A DNA stretch of 32,000 nucleotides from Wolbachia endosymbiont of Cimex lectularius (GTDB taxonomy: Bacteria; Pseudomonadota; Alphaproteobacteria; Rickettsiales; Anaplasmataceae): positions 780,001 to 812,000 of the forward strand of contig NZ_AP013028.1 in NCBI RefSeq assembly GCF_000829315.1, given 5' to 3'. The position numbers and the translations under genes were made by a program. Under the pieces are notes generated by a model. The model worked only from the letters and a program-made list of their open reading frames with translations. It had not been told where the DNA came from and ran no database searches. Shown here one piece after another: positions 6,825 through 31,125 of the stretch; the stretch's first letter is position 1, and each line of letters begins with the position of its first letter.

Positions 6825-7112
6825 CATCTAAAGCAAGAAGCTCAAGCCATGATTAAACATAATAGAGAAGCAATAGATAAGTTTTGTGATGGCTTTTGCT
6901 AGCAAGTAGGAAGCAAAGAAAGAAAAGCTAAAGGAAAGTGACTGTAAAATGAAGACTTTTAACAGCTTATGTCACAAAAGATGGTAGTGGTAGCAAATTT
7001 CAGAGATAATGGAATAAAGAGAGCCTTTTGCATACAGTTGGCAGGTTTAAGGAAATTTGTAATGTTTGCCTTCCCAATAACAAAAGTTAGTATAACACGT
7101 AGCGGAACGACG

Positions 7113-7589
7113 GTAGCTATAAGCATTAAGAAATTTACTAAGTAGAAAAAAAAGCAAAAGAAGCCCCGTGGTGGCTATTTATTTACTTTTGTGTCGAAAT
7201 GTTGGCGTTTTTTTATCCTAAGCGCTTAATAAGTGCGACTTAGCTGCTTTTTAATGCAACTAACCTTAGCCATAAACATTTAAGAAATTTACTAAGCAGA
7301 AAAACAGGCAAAGAAACCCCGAGTAGCTAGTTATTCACTATCTATCTTATAACATTGGCGTTTTTGATGTCTTAAACGACTTATAAGCACGTTTCAGCTT
7401 GTATAGGTAAAAAAGCAAAAGTTTTAAAAAGACATACAGTGCACATAGTGCGAAAAATTAAACATGAGACGCCAAATGTACTAAGTTTTTTTGTCGTTTA
7501 ATCTGCACAGACTGAAGATAAATAATAGCTTCAGTCTCATTATAAGAGTAACAGCGAAAGTTGTCAAGTAGTTTTTTTGTTTCTATTGG
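7113..7589 (-). repeat. ~470-bp intergenic repeat family, copy A (orientation defined by its internal promoter)
   Basis: Aligns by eye along its length with 18136..18655 (same orientation) and 23924..24382 (inverted). Contains two degenerate ~153-bp tandem units starting at about 7124 and 7277. Confidence 0.85.
7539..7567 (-). promoter_or_regulatory. consensus promoter TTGACA-N17-TATAAT inside repeat copy A
   Basis: On the minus strand, TTGACA is the reverse complement of 7562-7567 and TATAAT of 7539-7544, with a 17-nt spacer and an upstream A-tract (aaaaaaactac). Confidence 0.6.
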
Positions 7590-7732
7590 GTAACGGCTGG
7601 ATCAAATTGCAATGTTCATGCAGTTGTGACTGAAATTGCGCTAGCTTGCTGATCTATGTAAACATAGGCACTATCCTGTTGATAAAGCTCAAACTAACTG
7701 ATAAATTCTTAACACAGTTATTGTTGAAACAA

Positions 7733-13436: not shown

Positions 13437-13688
13437 TTATATACTTTTCAAAAGATTCACTAGTTTATTCTGTAATTGGATCATTGAGTTACGCAATGTC
13501 ACCAGTGATAAGCCAGTTACTTGGGAAATAACATTGATAGAAATACCTAACTGTGCAAGTCCCAGATTGTGCTGAATGTCTATACTGCCTAAATTTTGAA
13601 GTGAAAATTTTAATAAACAGCAAATAAACAAGTTTATCAAAAGAGAGTTAAATGTTAGGGTTTGCAGCATTCTGGAAATTCTAGACAA
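13437..13688 (-). CDS. hypothetical small protein (doubtful)
   Basis: An 83-codon ORF with a TTG start, no RBS and no recognisable motif. Confidence 0.2.
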   Translation of the reverse strand: MSRISRMLQTLTFNSLLINLFICCLLKFSLQNLGSIDIQHNLGLAQLGISINVISQVTGLSLVTLRNSMIQLQNKLVNLLKSI

Positions 13689-14001
13689 TTTAAAATCAAC
13701 TTGGGATGGAGGAAGTTAGTGGCGGTTTAGACGTCACATACTCCTTCATCACAATGATAAAGAAGCTTACCTTTATCTCTGACGTATTTTAAAGGAATTT
13801 TGGGGTTATTGATGTCTTTACCACCAATATCATGCCATTTCTTTTCCCATGCAACATAATATGGCTCAAGGTCTTGCGGCGTTAATTTATATATTTCTTT
13901 CAGCTCTATTCCTTCATAAATAGCAAATATCCAATCCACTTTTCGGTATTTTGCAATTATTGTAGGATTCATATGATGATGAGTAGAAAAGTCTTTTGTA
14001 A

Positions 14002-14861
14002 GAACCTGTTTAAAATCTTGGAAATGTGAGGTAAAGTAAGCATAGATTAATAATGAGGTGTCTATGCAGAAAAGTTATCCAAGTAATATAAGTCAAGAGC
14101 AGTTTGAAAAAATCAGGCCAATTTTGGAGAGTAGCAAGCAGAAAACAAAACCAAGAAAACTTGATTTGTATGACGTATTTTGTGGGGTGTTGTACGTCTT
14201 AAAAAGTGGTTGTCAGTGGAGGATGTTACCAAAGGGTTTTCCAAGATGGGAAAGCGTATATTACTATTTTCGAGTGTGGAGTAAAAAGAATGGAGAAGAG
14301 CCAAGCTTGTTGGAATTAGTCTTAAAAAAAATTAGTTGGAGAGGTCCGTATCAGCAATGGTCGGAAAGAGAAAACTAGCTTTTGTATAATTGATTCTCAA
14401 AGCGTTAAAAACGCAGATACTGCTGAAAAAAAAAGGCTATGATGCAGGTAAAAAGATTTCAGGGATAAAGCGCCATATTGCAGTTGATACACAAGGTTTG
14501 CCACATGCAATTTATGTAACAACGGCAGAAGCAACTGACCGTAGCAGTGCTGTGAAAATGGTCGAAAATGCTAAAGCAAACCTCTCTGAAGTTAAAAACA
14601 TACTGGTTGATGCTGGCTACACAGGAGAAAATTTTGCAACACAAATAAAAGCTATCATTGGTGCGACTGTTGAAGTAATAAGCGAAGTGAGTTACACACT
14701 TTCGTCGTATTGCCAAAAAGATGGGTTGTTGAACGCTCTTTTGCCTGGTTAGAAAAGTGCAGGCGATTGTGGAAAAATTGCGAGCGGAAGCTCAACACTA
14801 GCTTACAGATGATAGTCCTCTCCTTCATTTCTCTCCTGTTACGAAGATTTTAAACAGGTTC
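14002..14861 (+). mobile_element. IS5-family insertion sequence, copy 1 (860 bp, carries a 1-bp deletion), TSD TAA
   Basis: Termini GAACCTGTTTAAAATCTT...AAGATTTTAAACAGGTTC, flanked by TAA (13999-14001 and 14862-14864). An A is missing near 14680 relative to the other copies. Confidence 0.9.
14058..14853 (+). pseudogene. IS5-family DDE transposase, degraded copy (extra frameshift in the orfB part)
   Basis: orfA spans 14058..14378. The orfB part diverges after ..GATVEVI ([10 protein letters not shown] versus [11 protein letters not shown] in the other copies). Confidence 0.85.
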
Positions 14862-15336
14862 TAAGAAGAGCATTTATTGATTTAAGCTCATATTCATTAC
14901 CATACTCATCAATAGCATCATTTCCTTCGCGTCCTGGAAGAATAGTGAGTCCAGTTAGTAGTAAGACTTGTAGGATTTTTCCACCGTTGTCCTGAAATAT
15001 ATCATTTATACCATGCTTAACAGCAAACTCTTGATGTTTCCGTATATGGGGAAATAGTTCTTCCAGAAGTTTTCTATCTTGATAAGTTCCCTCCGGGTTT
15101 AGAAGTGCAGTAGGTACGACACCGAGCGCATCTGCTATGCGCTCAATATTATCTATAGAGATATTTCGCTCACCACGTTCAACGGAGCCTATATATGTCC
15201 TGTGTAATTTGCATAAATCAGCAAGAGTTTCTTGGGAAAGTCCTTTTATATTTCTTAGCCTTCGTATATTCTGAGAAAGAAGTAACCGTAGAGGTTGCCT
15301 TTTTATTTTCATCATCTCTACAAGGTAATAGTTGAC

Positions 15337-15362
15337 AATTATAAGTCTACAGACTATAAGTA
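15337..15362 (-). promoter_or_regulatory. C-box-like operator (two units separated by TGTA), overlapping divergent promoters
   Basis: The minus strand reads TACTTATAGTC-TGTA-GACTTATAATT, 22-47 nt upstream of ATG 15315. It contains a minus-strand TATAAT (reverse complement of 15338-15343). A plus-strand TTGACA (15332-15337)-N17-TATAAG (15355-15360) runs across it. Confidence 0.55.
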
Positions 15363-15370
15363 TCTTTTGT

Positions 15371-16402
15371 ATGGTAACCGCATTGGAAAAATTTAAATTT
15401 AATAATAAACCCACATATACTACAGATATGGGAGCTGCGTACTGTGGAAACTCTCTTAACTTATTGCCTCAATTACCAGATAATAGCTTGGATCTCGTAA
15501 TAACCAGTCCACCGTTTGCTTTGCAAAGAAAAAAAGAATACGGAAATGAGTCCCAAGCGGAATATGTTGCATGGCTTAGTCAATTTGCAAAGTTAGTACA
15601 TAGCAAACTCAAAGATACTGGCAGTTTTGTACTTGATCTGAGTGGGGCTTATGAAAAAGGCGTGCCATCTAGAAGTTTATATAATTTTAGAGTGCTTGTG
15701 CATTTCTGTGACGATATAGGCTTCTTTCTTGCAGAAGATTTCTATTGGTATAATCCTTCTAAATTGCCAAGTCCAATTGAATGGGTAAATAAGAAAAAAA
15801 TCAGAGCAAAAGATTCTGTTAACACAGTATGGTGGTTCAGCAAAACTAAGTGGCCTAAAGCAGATGTCACAAAGGTGCTAGCGGAATACAGTGACCGCAT
15901 GAAAAAACTTATCGAGAACCCAAAGGCTTATTATACTCCAAAGGAACGGCCATCAGGGCACAATATTGGTAGTAGCTTTGGCAAAGATAATGGAGGAGCT
16001 ATTCCATCGAATCTTTTGCAGATTCCCAACTCAGAATCTAATAGCCAGTATCTTGCTGCATGTAAGAAACTAGGTATAAAACAGCATCCAGCTAGATTCC
16101 CTGCTAAATTACCTCAATTTTTTATCCGGTTTCTAACACAACCAGGAGATGTTGTTTTAGATATTTTTGCTGGTTCTAACACAACAGGTTTTGTGTGTGA
16201 GCAAGAAGACCGTTGCTGGCTAGCATTTGAAGAAAATAGAGAATACCTTGCTGCATCTGCTTTCAGGTTCTTAAAAAAAGAATGCTCAAAGGAAGAGTTA
16301 GAAACTATTTATCAACGCATTGTTCATGGTGAAGAGCAAGTATTAAAGGCTAAGCAGCCTATATTGGATCTTAAATTCACTCAGCAGTCATTAGTAGTTT
16401 AG
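15371..16402 (+). CDS. M.PvuII-like N4-cytosine DNA methyltransferase (beta class)
   Basis: [18 protein letters not shown] (SPPF catalytic motif) lies N-terminal to [13 protein letters not shown] (AdoMet motif). Long collinear blocks include [44 protein letters not shown] and AASAFRF. Confidence 0.9.
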
Positions 16403-16519
16403 AAGCAAACTTGTGCTCTTCGTTCATGGTTTTCCCGTTTTTAGCAATAACTTTTTATATAAGCATTTTTGTTGCTTGTTATCTAAGTGGAGAAAGTCAC
16501 CTCTCCCCACTCAACTTCA

Positions 16520-16553
16520 AAACCGGACTTGTGACTTTCACCACATCCGGCTT
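16520..16553 (-). ncRNA. group II intron catalytic domain V
   Basis: The minus strand reads AAGCCGGAUGUGGU-GAAA-GUCAC-AA-GUCCGGUUU. It has a 9-bp lower helix with the AGC triad and a G.U pair, a 2-nt bulge on the 3' strand, a 5-bp upper helix and a GNRA tetraloop, 34 nt in total. Confidence 0.85.
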
Positions 16554-16785
16554 CTCTCTAATTTGGTGTTTGTCATACATACTTCTCCATGTAATCAACA
16601 TTTCAAAGCTTGGTAAATTTATTTTTGTAGCTTAAATACGGCGTTTTCTATACTACTAGAGAGGTCGTATTCATTCATACCTAACACTTAATGTTGGCTC
16701 ATAACATATTAACCACTACTTACAACTTTACCCTCCAAATTACAGTGTCCACGTCAGCATATCCTAAACATTACTTTAGGCCTTA

Positions 16786-17646
16786 GAACCTGTTTAAAAT
16801 CTTCGTAACAGGAGAGAAATGAAGGAGAGGACTATCATCTGTAAGCTAGTGTTGAGCTTCCGCTCGCAATTTTTCCACAATCGCCTGCACTTTTCTAACC
16901 AGGCAAAAGAGCGTTCAACAACCCATCTTTTTGGCAATACGACGAAAGTGTGTAACTCACTTCGCTTTATTACTTCAACAGTCGCACCAATGATAGCTTT
17001 TATTTGTGTTGCAAAATTTTCTCCTGTGTAGCCAGCATCAACCAGTATGTTTTTAACTTCAGAGAGGTTTGCTTTAGCATTTTCGACCATTTTCACAGCA
17101 CTGCTACGGTCAGTTGCTTCTGCCGTTGTTACATAAATTGCATGTGGCAAACCTTGTGTATCAACTGCAATATGGCGCTTTATCCCTGAAATCTTTTTAC
17201 CTGCATCATAGCCTTTTTTTTTCAGCAGTATCTGCGTTTTTAACGCTTTGAGAATCAATTATACAAAAGCTAGTTTTCTCTTTCCGACCATTGCTGATAC
17301 GGACCTCTCCAACTAATTTTTTTTAAGACTAATTCCAACAAGCTTGGCTCTTCTCCATTCTTTTTACTCCACACTCGAAAATAGTAATATACGCTTTCCC
17401 ATCTTGGAAAACCCTTTGGTAACATCCTCCACTGACAACCACTTTTTAAGACGTACAACACCCCACAAAATACGTCATACAAATCAAGTTTTCTTGGTTT
17501 TGTTTTCTGCTTGCTACTCTCCAAAATTGGCCTGATTTTTTCAAACTGCTCTTGACTTATATTACTTGGATAACTTTTCTGCATAGACACCTCATTATTA
17601 ATCTATGCTTACTTTACCTCACATTTCCAAGATTTTAAACAGGTTC
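16786..17646 (-). mobile_element. IS5-family insertion sequence, copy 2 (861 bp), TSD TTA
   Basis: Same termini as the other copies, flanked by TTA (16783-16785 and 17647-17649). Confidence 0.9.
16794..17590 (-). CDS. IS5-family DDE transposase (orfA 17590..17270, orfB 17258..16794; full length needs two frame changes)
   Basis: orfA has an HTH-like N-terminus ending ..CQWRMLPKGFPRWESVYYYF. The DDE core IIDSQSVK is in the third frame. LVDAGY and VVERSFAWL are in orfB. Confidence 0.85.
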
Positions 17647-18135: not shown

Positions 18136-18655
18136 TCTATTTTCAATATTGGCGTTTTTCATAACGCTGCGCGCTCTTAAATTACCTAGCCACAAATATT
18201 TAAGAAATTTACCAAGTGAAAAAAAAGCAAAGGAAGCCCCGTGGTGGCTAATTATTTACTTTTGTGTCGAAATATCGGCGTTTTTTTTATTCTAAACGCT
18301 TGATGAATGCGACTTAGCTGTTTTTTAATGCAACTAACCTTAGCTGCAAACATTTAAAAAATTTACTAAACAGAAAAAACAGCAAAAGAAATCCCGGTAG
18401 CTAGTTATTTACTATCTATCCTATAATATTGGCGTTTTTTTATGTTTTAAACGACTTATAAGCGCGTTTGAGCTTGTATAGGTAAAAAACCAGAAGTTTT
18501 AAAAAGACATACGGTGCACATAGTGCAAAAAATTAAACATGAGACGCCAGATATACTAAGTTTTTTTGTCATTTAATCTGCACAGACTGAAGATAAATAA
18601 TAGCTTCAACTTTATGATAATGGGTTTGGAGGAACTTGTCAAGTAGTTTTTTTGT
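18136..18655 (-). repeat. ~470-bp intergenic repeat family, copy B (with an extra partial unit)
   Basis: Collinear with 7113..7589. Tandem units start at about 18197 and 18351, with a partial third unit at 18136-18190. Confidence 0.85.
18614..18642 (-). promoter_or_regulatory. promoter TTGACA-N17-TATCAT inside repeat copy B
   Basis: TTGACA is the reverse complement of 18637-18642 and TATCAT of 18614-18619, with a 17-nt spacer. It lies 34 nt downstream of the ccmF stop, on the same strand. Confidence 0.55.
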
Positions 18656-18675
18656 GATGGTATAAAGGAGTCCTA

Positions 18676-22640: not shown

Positions 22641-22952
22641 ATGCAGAAAATGATCGATATATATCAAGAAAGAATTGCTGGATATCAGGAGCAAATTCGT
22701 CAAAACTTAACCCAAATAAGAAAAATATTCAAAAGCATGCCACAGGAAACGAAAAGTCTATGTTGTGTGGAAGAATTCGAGGAATCAATGGATAATATGC
22801 ATGAAGCAAAGCAGGTTGATGAAAACTTTGATTTGGTTTTATCGAATATACAAAGCAAGTTAGATATTCAGCTGGAAAGAACGGGAAATCCTTCGATAGA
22901 ACTAGAAGAAGCCTTACACGTCAAGAGTAGAACTGAAGTAACTAGGTCATAA
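22641..22952 (+). CDS. hypothetical protein (coiled-coil-like), translationally coupled to the upstream gene
   Basis: ATG 22641 is preceded by AGGAG at the correct spacing and overlaps the upstream stop. Confidence 0.6.
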   Translation: MQKMIDIYQERIAGYQEQIRQNLTQIRKIFKSMPQETKSLCCVEEFEESMDNMHEAKQVDENFDLVLSNIQSKLDIQLERTGNPSIELEEALHVKSRTEVTRS

Positions 22953-23895: not shown

Positions 23896-23923
23896 TTTCT
23901 TTCTTTCTGAATTCTAGTATCAT

Positions 23924-24382
23924 CCAATAGAAACAAAAAAACTACTTGACAACCTTCACCGTTACCCTTATAATAATATTGAAGCTATTCATTTAACTTC
24001 GCAATCTGCAGATTAAAACGACAAAGGAAACTTTGTATTTTGTGTCTCATGTTTAAATTTTTGCACTATGTGCACCTCACGTCTTTTTAAAACTTCTGCT
24101 TTTTACCTGTACAAGCTGAAACGCGCTTATAAGTCGTTTAAGACAGTATAGAACGTCAAATAGAACAAGGGAGAATTTGAATACTAGCTGCTCTGGGTTT
24201 CTTTTACCTTTTTTTTCTGCTTAGTAAATTTCTTAGCACTTAAGCTAAGGGTCTGTTGCAGTTTAAAAGCAGCTAAATTGCAGCGTTTAAGGCATAAAAA
24301 CGCCAATACTAAAAATAAATACCGACCAGGGCTTCTTTTGCTTTTTTTCTCATCTGGTAAATTTCTTAAATATTTATTGCTA
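23924..24382 (+). repeat. ~470-bp intergenic repeat family, copy C (inverted relative to A and B; most diverged)
   Basis: Its reverse complement aligns with 7113..7589 and 18185..18655. Confidence 0.8.
23946..23974 (+). promoter_or_regulatory. consensus promoter TTGACA-N17-TATAAT inside repeat copy C
   Basis: TTGACA at 23946-23951, a 17-nt spacer, TATAAT at 23969-23974. It lies 50 nt downstream of the prmC stop, on the same strand. Confidence 0.6.
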
Positions 24383-24880
24383 AAATAGTATTCTGGATTC
24401 CAGTGTCAGCTACTTGGATGACAGGAAGAGGATGCTGGAATGATACCATCATAGAACTTCAGCTATACTCTATGATTTTACATATTAATTTAATTATTTA
24501 TATCTTTTTGCTAAGATGTAAATTATACTGATATGGAAATTTACGCTTTTTTTAGGGAAATCACTTTATGCTTGATATTGAAGGATTAACAAATTAGAGG
24601 TTAAAGTTATGACAATCAATCGACAAGTAAATAAAAATATAACTAAAGAAGAGTATTTCAACAATGGTGGTAAGGGATTTAACTCACCACATATTGTAGA
24701 AATAGAAGAACTAAATATCAAAGTAGAGGTTTATTCTCATAATTTAAGAGCAAGTAAAGTTCCTAAAATTGAAAGTGAGATAAGAGAAACAGCTACTAAT
24801 TTTAAAGGTGCATTTAAATTGGAACCTTGCAGTTCAGAACAAACATTCAAGATTTATATGTTTGACGATAAGGATGATTA

Positions 24881-30264: not shown

Positions 30265-31125
30265 GAACCTGTTTAAAATCTTCGTAACAGGAGAGAAATG
30301 AAGGAGAGGACTATCATCTGTAAGCTAGTGTTGAGCTTCCGCTCGCAATTTTTCCACAATCGCCTGCACTTTTCTAACCAGGCAAAAGAGCGTTCAACAA
30401 CCCATCTTTTTGGCAATACGACGAAAGTGTGTAACTCACTTCGCTTTATTACTTCAACAGTCGCACCAATGATAGCTTTTATTTGTGTTGCAAAATTTTC
30501 TCCTGTGTAGCCAGCATCAACCAGTATGTTTTTAACTTCAGAGAGGTTTGCTTTAGCATTTTCGACCATTTTCACAGTACTGCTACGGTCAGTTGCTTCT
30601 GCCGTTGTTACATAAATTGCATGTGGCAAACCTTGTGTATCAACTGCAATATGGCGCTTTATCCCTGAAATCTTTTTACCTGCATCATAGCCTTTTTTTT
30701 TCAGCAGTATCTGCGTTTTTAACGCTTTGAGAATCAATTATACAAAAGCTAGTTTTCTCTTTCCGACCATTGCTGATACGGACCTCTCCAACTAATTTTT
30801 TTTAAGACTAATTCCAACAAGCTTGGCTCTTCTCCATTCTTTTTACTCCACACTCGAAAATAGTAATATACGCTTTCCCATCTTGGAAAACCCTTTGGTA
30901 ACATCCTCCACTGACAACCACTTTTTAAGACGTACAACACCCCACAAAATACGTCATACAAATCAAGTTTTCTTGGTTTTGTTTTCTGCTTGCTACTCTC
31001 CAAAATTGGCCTGATTTTTTCAAACTGCTCTTGACTTATATTACTTGGATAACTTTTCTGCATAGACACCTCATTATTAATCTATGCTTACTTTACCTCA
31101 CATTTCCAAGATTTTAAACAGGTTC
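30265..31125 (-). mobile_element. IS5-family insertion sequence, copy 5 (861 bp), flanks TAA and TTA do not match
   Basis: Same termini as the other copies. TAA lies at 30262-30264, but TTA lies at 31126-31128. Confidence 0.9.
30273..31069 (-). CDS. IS5-family DDE transposase (orfA 31069..30749, orfB 30737..30273; two frame changes needed)
   Basis: Identical to the other copies except for one substitution in orfB (RSSTVKM versus RSSAVKM). Confidence 0.85.

Follow-up and report, generated by a model that had tools for sequence, protein, structure and literature searches.

An IS5-family insertion in the controller–endonuclease gene of a PvuII-family restriction–modification cassette of the Wolbachia endosymbiont of Cimex lectularius

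What remains of a restriction–modification (R-M) system when a mobile element lands in its nuclease gene? Orphan DNA methyltransferases arise, in the general model, when an R-M system loses its endonuclease, and the question is raised by a locus of wCle, the Wolbachia endosymbiont of Cimex lectularius. The window analysed here is a stretch of 32,000 nucleotides (NZ_AP013028.1, positions 780,001 to 812,000), and all coordinates below are positions in this 32-kb window. In it, a gene for a PvuII-like endonuclease fused to a controller protein, here called CR, is interrupted by an insertion sequence (IS) and lies beside a divergent DNA methyltransferase gene, M. We hold with high confidence that the locus is a PvuII-family Type IIP R-M cassette, with CAGCTG as its predicted target, in which CR was split by the IS, restriction was lost and M was retained. 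This reading starts from direct observations, i.e., the anatomy of the cassette, the family memberships of its products, the insertion with its target duplication and its recency, and the empty site in a close relative.

The split gene, its product and the uninterrupted allele

On the minus strand, an 860-bp element (14002..14861) lies between the open reading frames (ORFs) 14839..15414(-) and 13727..13972(-) (Table 1). Deleting 14002..14864, that is, the 860-bp IS and one TAA, yields a single frame of 241 codons and a stop (726 nt), whose restored junction reads ...ELKSINALL|TKDFSTHHH.... A preliminary description of this DNA had taken the two ORFs for halves of one gene, and its coordinates, junction and frame length were all correct on re-reading. 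The excision that it proposed, restoring the 726-nt frame, could be reproduced, and a natural uninterrupted allele has the junction that it predicts. It also considered the IS to be the only lesion in the nuclease gene. We agree: there is no further stop or frameshift, 65 of the 66 family-conserved columns are retained, and the lone deviating column is common to all Wolbachia alleles.

The uninterrupted allele comes from a Wolbachia metagenome-assembled genome (GCA_051710305.1, hereafter L089) that is 98.6–98.9% identical to the window and has the same gene order as wCle (ccmF-M-CR-secF-protease-yidC-ribH-nusB). It encodes a 343-amino-acid (aa) M and an unbroken 241-aa CR (P0159), which differs from the wCle reconstruction at 4 of 241 residues, and its sequence at the insertion point is TTTTGTAAGAAGAGC. 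Amplification across the site in related strains had been proposed as a way to find such an allele; the L089 genome already supplies one. Since the site in L089 is empty, the insertion dates from after ~1–1.4% divergence, and it is therefore recent. In line with this, neither of the two CR fragments in wCle has gained a further stop or frameshift.

The element in CR is bounded by perfect terminal inverted repeats of 18 bp (GAACCTGTTTAAAATCTT). It carries orfA at 14058..14378 (DUF4096/PF13340) and orfB at 14390..14752 (DDE_Tnp_1/PF01609), which match positions 1–85 and 112–257, respectively, of the 258 positions of NF033580 (IS5 family); as read from the sequence, an A8 run precedes orfB, whose frame is -1 with respect to that of orfA. 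Five copies, starting at 14002, 16786, 21161, 24881 and 30265, are found in the window at 99.7–100% identity, four of them with matching 3-bp TAA or TTA duplications. A 1-nt deletion in an A-run near 14682 (AATAAAG to AATAAG) is private to the copy in CR, being missing from the other four, and shortens the transposase orfB product from 154 to 120 aa. This copy probably cannot transpose by itself, although it could be acted on by intact copies elsewhere. All four copies within the stretch covered by L089 (14002, 16786, 21161 and 24881) are absent from that genome, where their flanks are joined seamlessly; at 98–99% identity between the two genomes, this points to a recent burst of the IS in the wCle lineage. 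The remaining copy, at 30265..31125 (-), has TAA on one flank and TTA on the other, whereas the flanks of the other four match. Such mismatched flanks would be the signature expected of recombination between two IS copies, i.e., of a rearrangement.

What did the intact gene encode? The preliminary description recognised the joined 241-aa product as R.PvuII. Its membership in the PvuII family of endonucleases was confirmed; however, it is not R.PvuII alone, which has a length of 157 aa, as the N-terminal ~75 aa are the helix-turn-helix (HTH) domain of a controller (C) protein. Residues 80–232 match R.PvuII structures (1PVI, 1EYU and related entries) with an E-value of ~1e-70, and Pfam PF09225 is matched at 2.5e-67 over profile positions 2–155 of 155. 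Residues ~13–72 form an Xre-type HTH, matching C.AhdI (1.5e-13), C.BclI (2.2e-13) and C.Esp1396I (2.6e-06), and this C domain carries LHRTY. HTH_3 (4.2e-14) and PF09225 both fall on the same ORF, in which in-frame starts (ATG/GTG/TTG) exist only at codons 1, 2, 161 and 172. Without a start between codons 2 and 161, the nuclease (R) domain can be made solely as a fusion to the C domain; its independent translation was considered and rejected for lack of an internal start codon. The 241-aa product is thus an in-frame C-protein/PvuII-endonuclease fusion of the known C-REase class. Natural C-REase fusions among PvuII orthologues were described by Liang & Blumenthal 2013 (PMC3850674), and one of them, CR.NsoJS138I of Niabella soli, is a single polypeptide that cleaves with PvuII specificity and activates its own promoter (PMC3850674).

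Upstream of the IS, CR encodes the C-protein HTH (aa ~13–72), whose recognition helix is HRTY; a short linker then leads to R.PvuII residues 1–76, among them D34, E55, D58, E68 and K70. The downstream part corresponds to R.PvuII residues ~77–157 (with S81, T82, H83–H85, N140, N141 and K143) followed by a 9-aa tail. Ungapped identity between the restored CR and R.PvuII is 106/157 (~67%), and in PvuII numbering the catalytic D58, E68 and K70, together with E55, are identical in both, as are the DNA-contacting D34, S81, T82, H83–H85, N140, N141 and K143. The roles of these catalytic and contact residues are established knowledge of R.PvuII structures. From the ~67% identity with every contact residue kept, and by analogy with the tested CR.NsoJS138I, the target of CR is predicted to be CAGCTG.

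The fused architecture (237–243 aa) is found in other Wolbachia and accounts for more than 100 of the best 120 database matches to the CR query. Among 71 species-representative loci picked by similarity to M, 63 encode C in a gene of its own upstream and just 7 are fused. The C–R fusion is thus a minority class in the sample drawn by M, though dominant among matches to the fused query. In wCle, the 5′ ORF now runs into the IS and stops at 14839, giving a 158-aa product. In public wCle records, this fragment appears as a 158- or 191-aa HTH protein, and the labels “helix-turn-helix domain-containing protein” and “PDDEXK family nuclease” hide the nature of the system.

The methyltransferase and the shared control region

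The divergent gene had been described as a beta-class N4-methylcytosine (m4C) methyltransferase collinear with M.PvuII, and this is what we find. Its product matches M.PvuII (1BOO) with an E-value of 8.5e-153 over residues 9–323 and PF01555 at 3.1e-43, and the SPPF motif (motif IV, aa 46–49) precedes the motif I block (FAGS, aa 264–273), which is the beta-class layout. The two similarities on which the preliminary description had staked its reading, and which can be tested on sequence, are therefore both present: that of the joined product to PvuII-family endonucleases and that of the divergent product to N4-cytosine methyltransferases. Conservation of M was compared across 77 non-Wolbachia homologues, in which 158 columns are at least 90% conserved. 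The wCle protein deviates at 5 of these 158 columns. E249Q and A276C are common to all Wolbachia alleles compared, D27N and R142K are also present in L089, whose CR is intact, and the fifth change, G91S, is weighed in the next section.

The start codons of CR (ATG at 15315) and M (ATG at 15371) are separated by an intergenic region of 55 bp (15316..15370) that contains a predicted C-box operator. The PvuII-group consensus is GACT-N3-AGTC-N4-GACT-N3-AGTC, with the spacer TGTA when the recognition helix is HRTY, and half-box 1A of native PvuII is also TACT (PMC2175313). In wCle, 13 of the 16 half-box positions match this consensus, and the exact TGTA spacer is paired with an HRTY helix. The pattern GACT-N3-AGTC-TGTA-GACT-N3-AGTC, allowing at most three mismatches, is unique in the window, with 0 matches expected from shuffles. 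Furthermore, the operator is identical in six Wolbachia alleles while the DNA around it varies: L089 has the same 55 bp throughout, and wApol, wChalcis, wLimnophora and wPsylliodes share the operator and the bases next to it, although the flanking coding DNA differs by 6–9%. By eye, a TTGACA-17-TATAAG pair can be seen on the M strand over the C-boxes; it fails the rule of our promoter scan for the last T, and promoters were left unassigned.

Table 1. Positions of the cassette, its genes and control elements, and the insertion sequences discussed in the text
Feature	Position	Strand	Description
R-M cassette extent	13590..16480	.	~2.03 kb without the IS; stretch in common with cassettes located elsewhere on the chromosome in group A and B Wolbachia
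CR gene, 3′ part	13727..14001	-	Codon 151 bases 2–3, codons 152–241, stop
Left TAA target duplication	13999..14001	.	Single TAA at the L089 empty site
IS5-family element in CR	14002..14861	+	860 bp; Pfam PF13340, PF01609, NCBIfam NF033580; copy alignment
Right TAA target duplication	14862..14864	.	Single TAA at the L089 empty site
CR gene, 5′ part	14865..15315	-	Codons 1–150 and codon 151 base 1
C-box operator (predicted)	15337..15362	-	TACT-TAT-AGTC-TGTA-GACT-TAT-AATT, inside the 55-bp CR/M gap
M gene	15371..16402	+	343 aa, M.PvuII-like beta-class N4-cytosine DNA methyltransferase; carries G91S
Second IS copy	16786..17646	-	861 bp, orfB intact, TAA duplication; absent from L089

Proposed loss of restriction and rival readings

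We propose the following course of events. In the intact state, CR and the divergent M would share the 55-bp control region with its PvuII-type C-box operator. M would be expressed first and methylate CAGCTG at N4 of cytosine; CR would then accumulate, regulate its own gene by binding the C-boxes and restrict CAGCTG sites that lack methylation. The 860-bp IS5-family element inserted, in the wCle lineage, at a TAA within CR codon 151, equivalent to R.PvuII residue 76, and so parted the catalytic residues D58, E68 and K70 from H83–H85, N140 and N141, which serve recognition. With the catalytic half cut from the recognition half, restriction activity would be abolished. Left in wCle are M with its frame open, the operator, and a C-R′ stub of 158 aa comprising the complete C domain and the first 76 residues of R. 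By inference, M would remain an active orphan m4C methyltransferase, and the stub would retain its binding to the C-boxes.

Several points weigh against this reading. The functional side of every Wolbachia copy of the cassette rests on sequence comparison. Half-box 2B reads AATT, not AGTC, in all Wolbachia alleles, including apparently functional ones, and it is this half-box that is linked to repression in PvuII. A consensus scan of 13500–16800 gave no convincing sigma-70 promoter for CR or M, with fewer matches than in shuffles. G91S in M is private to wCle, in a column that is 100% glycine in the 77 non-Wolbachia homologues and in every other Wolbachia allele, L089 included, and it may impair the enzyme. 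The preliminary description considered the methyltransferase to be left intact, which holds for the ORF and for the SPPF and FAGS motifs; given G91S at an invariant glycine, “intact” applies to the reading frame and not to proven activity.

The target sites themselves carry little information. CAGCTG occurs five times in the window (2899, 6121, 6538, 22869 and 27614); the four sites listed in the preliminary description were placed correctly within 2 nt, and the one at 22869 had been missed. Against an expectation of 6.3 ± 2.4 (3.4–7.9 under other models), five sites are neither an enrichment nor a depletion. The lack of an avoidance signal in the window may be listed among the unfavourable points, yet it neither supports nor contradicts past restriction pressure.

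How far the loss extends is the main matter on which other readings differ. It is possible, though we consider it rather unlikely, that the whole cassette is a dead relic, in which M too would be non-functional, through G91S or through loss of expression, so that there would be neither restriction nor CAGCTG methylation and the open frame would merely reflect how recent the loss is. G91S is the sole amino-acid change that arose in wCle after it parted from L089, and it strikes an invariant glycine; M is broken in other Wolbachia lineages; and, as the IS insertion is recent, an open M frame says little about selection. On the other hand, M retains a full-length ORF with both SPPF and motif I, glycine to serine is a small change, and the 14 synonymous against 8 non-synonymous changes private to wCle M show no excess of replacements. 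These changes, together with the 2 synonymous and 3 non-synonymous ones private to wCle CR, are too few to judge whether selection was relaxed after the loss of R.

A different order of events may also be imagined, in which M was weakened first by G91S, the nuclease became harmful to its own host, and the knock-out of CR by the IS was selected for, as opposed to neutral decay. L089, with an intact CR, has G91, and wCle, with a broken CR, has S91. Moreover, a broken M accompanies a CR missense change in two other lineages (E55K in wApol and G56E in wPsylliodes), so the loss of one partner tends to accompany the loss of the other. We regard a selected knock-out as improbable: the pattern rests on one substitution, the order of events is not resolvable from two genomes, and IS insertions are frequent here (32 kb contain five copies, of which L089 lacks four), so a chance insertion suffices to explain the split of CR.

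Very improbable, in our view, is that the IS converted the system into something new, namely an active orphan CAGCTG m4C methyltransferase with the 158-aa stub on the C-boxes as a regulatory or epigenetic module, mobile as a composite transposon (14002..17646). Its mobility would come from the second IS copy, which lies 380 bp downstream of M in inverted orientation relative to the copy in CR, so that the pair brackets M, the operator and the 5′ part of CR; with an active IS at either end, in opposite orientations, such a module could be transposed as a unit.

Finally, that the split is an artefact of assembly, with an IS copy misplaced in an intact gene, is next to negligible. A genome rich in identical IS copies does invite misassembly, but the copy in CR is flanked by a matching TAA duplication of 3 bp and differs from the other four by its private 1-nt deletion, two other assemblies independently carry the same M and 5′-CR segment on a 2.1-kb contig ending in IS sequence on both sides, and the 158-aa shortened product is on record from nine contigs. 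Misassembly is thereby excluded as the source of the split, and the reading that we prefer remains a cassette with CR recently disrupted by the IS and M retained.

The cassette among Wolbachia and among known systems

The preliminary description regarded an m4C R-M module as unusual in an obligate intracellular bacterium. This is not so for Wolbachia, as dozens of strains carry the cassette. Intact and decayed copies are present in many supergroup A, supergroup B and ungrouped strains, at differing chromosomal sites. Fused CR proteins of 237–243 aa are found in Wolbachia of Atemnus, Chalcis, Limnophora, Sphaerophoria, Psylliodes, Listronotus, Andrena, Pipizella, Cheilosia, Volucella, Clivina, Ctenocephalides, Tetragnatha, Alcedoecus and others, and shortened versions are found in several Nomada Wolbachia strains, among others. 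Homology with two loci that have other flanking genes (L086 and L088) starts near 13590 and stops near 16475–16484. In wChalcis (group A) and wLimnophora (group B), both CR and M are intact, the neighbour genes differ and the shared DNA spans ~13590–16480. The presence of intact cassettes among differing neighbours indicates that a ~2-kb cassette has moved within the genus. Its GC content is 36.2%, compared with 35.8% for the window, and its nearest relatives outside Wolbachia are just ~65–73% identical and spread over many phyla. Among Wolbachia alleles, the ratio of non-synonymous to synonymous substitution rates (dN/dS) is ~0.25 for CR and 0.13–0.24 for M, which indicates long-term purifying selection on both genes.

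Two lineages have lost the other partner. In wApol (from Atemnus politus; L083:8926-10720), the CR ORF is full length and M is broken by two frameshifts. In wPsylliodes (from Psylliodes chrysocephala; L003:5235-7876), CR is likewise full length and M is interrupted at motif I (FAGS|NTTG) by a different IS5-family element. Each has a private CR missense change beside the catalytic centre, E55K in wApol and G56E in wPsylliodes (PvuII numbering), in columns that are 94% and 100% conserved, respectively. From these alignments, it is reasonable to suggest that the nuclease may have been disabled by point mutation before M was lost. A terminase gene beside the wApol cassette raised the idea of a phage origin, which was rejected as no remnant of that gene is present in the window.

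Some further observations concern the ends of the cassette and the surrounding DNA. Compared with group A and B alleles and with wApol, wCle has an extra 8 bp at each cassette end (13727–13737 and 16403–16410). At the CR stop, the additional 8 bp replace the ...VCDRH tail by ...VCDV, the ending also seen in other 241-aa alleles (P0159 of L089, P0131 and P0141). At 16481..16555 (-), the Rfam family RF00029 (group II intron, domain V/VI) is matched at 47.4 bits (gathering threshold 40; E 1.7e-06), exactly where homology with other Wolbachia cassettes stops, ~80 bp beyond the stop codon of M. Going by this match, it may be what is left of an intron at the edge of the cassette; no reverse-transcriptase ORF follows it, and the second IS copy lies 230 bp further on. 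A 201-aa “type-2 restriction enzyme PvuII” in a genome record of the spider Trichonephila clavata (P0008) is 87% identical to wCle CR and reflects either Wolbachia contamination or transfer into the host assembly.

The window also holds a non-coding repeat of ~480 bp in three copies, at 7100..7600 (-), 18180..18670 (-) and 23915..24400 (+), which is present in wApol as well. Mean column identity among the copies is 85%. Each copy opens with a near-consensus TTGACA-N17-TATAAT-like pair and has two sub-repeats inside it, both closing with a GC-rich stem and then a T-run; the repeat has no Rfam match.

How does the wCle system compare with those already described? The closest counterparts are the C-REase fusions of the PvuII family, i.e., CR.NsoJS138I, CR.Mru1279I, Oni7112I, Asp90I and Gsp7428I (Liang & Blumenthal 2013, PMC3850674). 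As in these, wCle CR is one polypeptide with an N-terminal C HTH and a C-terminal PvuII domain, encoded divergently from M by a gene with C-boxes upstream; its short linker resembles those of the Nso and Mru fusions. Unlike them, the wCle system belongs to an obligate intracellular alphaproteobacterium, is split by an IS in this copy, and has AATT as half-box 2B and a 9-aa C-terminal tail past the end of R.PvuII. With PvuII of Proteus (1PVI, 1BOO and C.PvuII), it shares ~67% identity in the R domain with all the key residues listed above, the same motif order in M, the HRTY helix, the TGTA spacer, TACT as half-box 1A and an M start codon 9 nt from the operator. It differs in that C and R of Proteus PvuII are separate overlapping genes, whereas those of wCle form one frame without an internal start.

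In agreement with the general model for orphan methyltransferases, the R gene of wCle is inactivated and the M ORF is retained alongside it. It departs from that model in that the loss is very recent, the activity of M is a prediction, and the controller domain and operator are kept together with M. Other DNA methyltransferase genes exist in Wolbachia genomes: Met1 and Met2 of prophage WO are adenine methyltransferases, phage-borne and without a cognate nuclease (PMC3089641). In contrast, the wCle methyltransferase is part of an N4-cytosine R-M cassette on the chromosome, adjacent to secF, in a window where no phage genes were found. A search of the literature accessible to us for a PvuII-type or m4C system in Wolbachia returned nothing. 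The C-REase fusion class is already known, and what is new here is the description of a previously undiscussed Wolbachia R-M cassette.

To our knowledge, no genetic transformation of Wolbachia has been achieved, and few descriptions of its defence systems exist. In other respects, the locus represents the gene decay expected in an IS-rich endosymbiont and the ordinary decay of a defence system. An apparently intact CAGCTG C-REase with its methyltransferase in many group A and B strains, with one partner lost in wCle and others, would nevertheless be useful to know of in transformation attempts and in the reading of methylomes. L089 and wCle, at 98–99% identity, form a natural before-and-after pair that captures a complete Type II system taking its first step towards an orphan methyltransferase.

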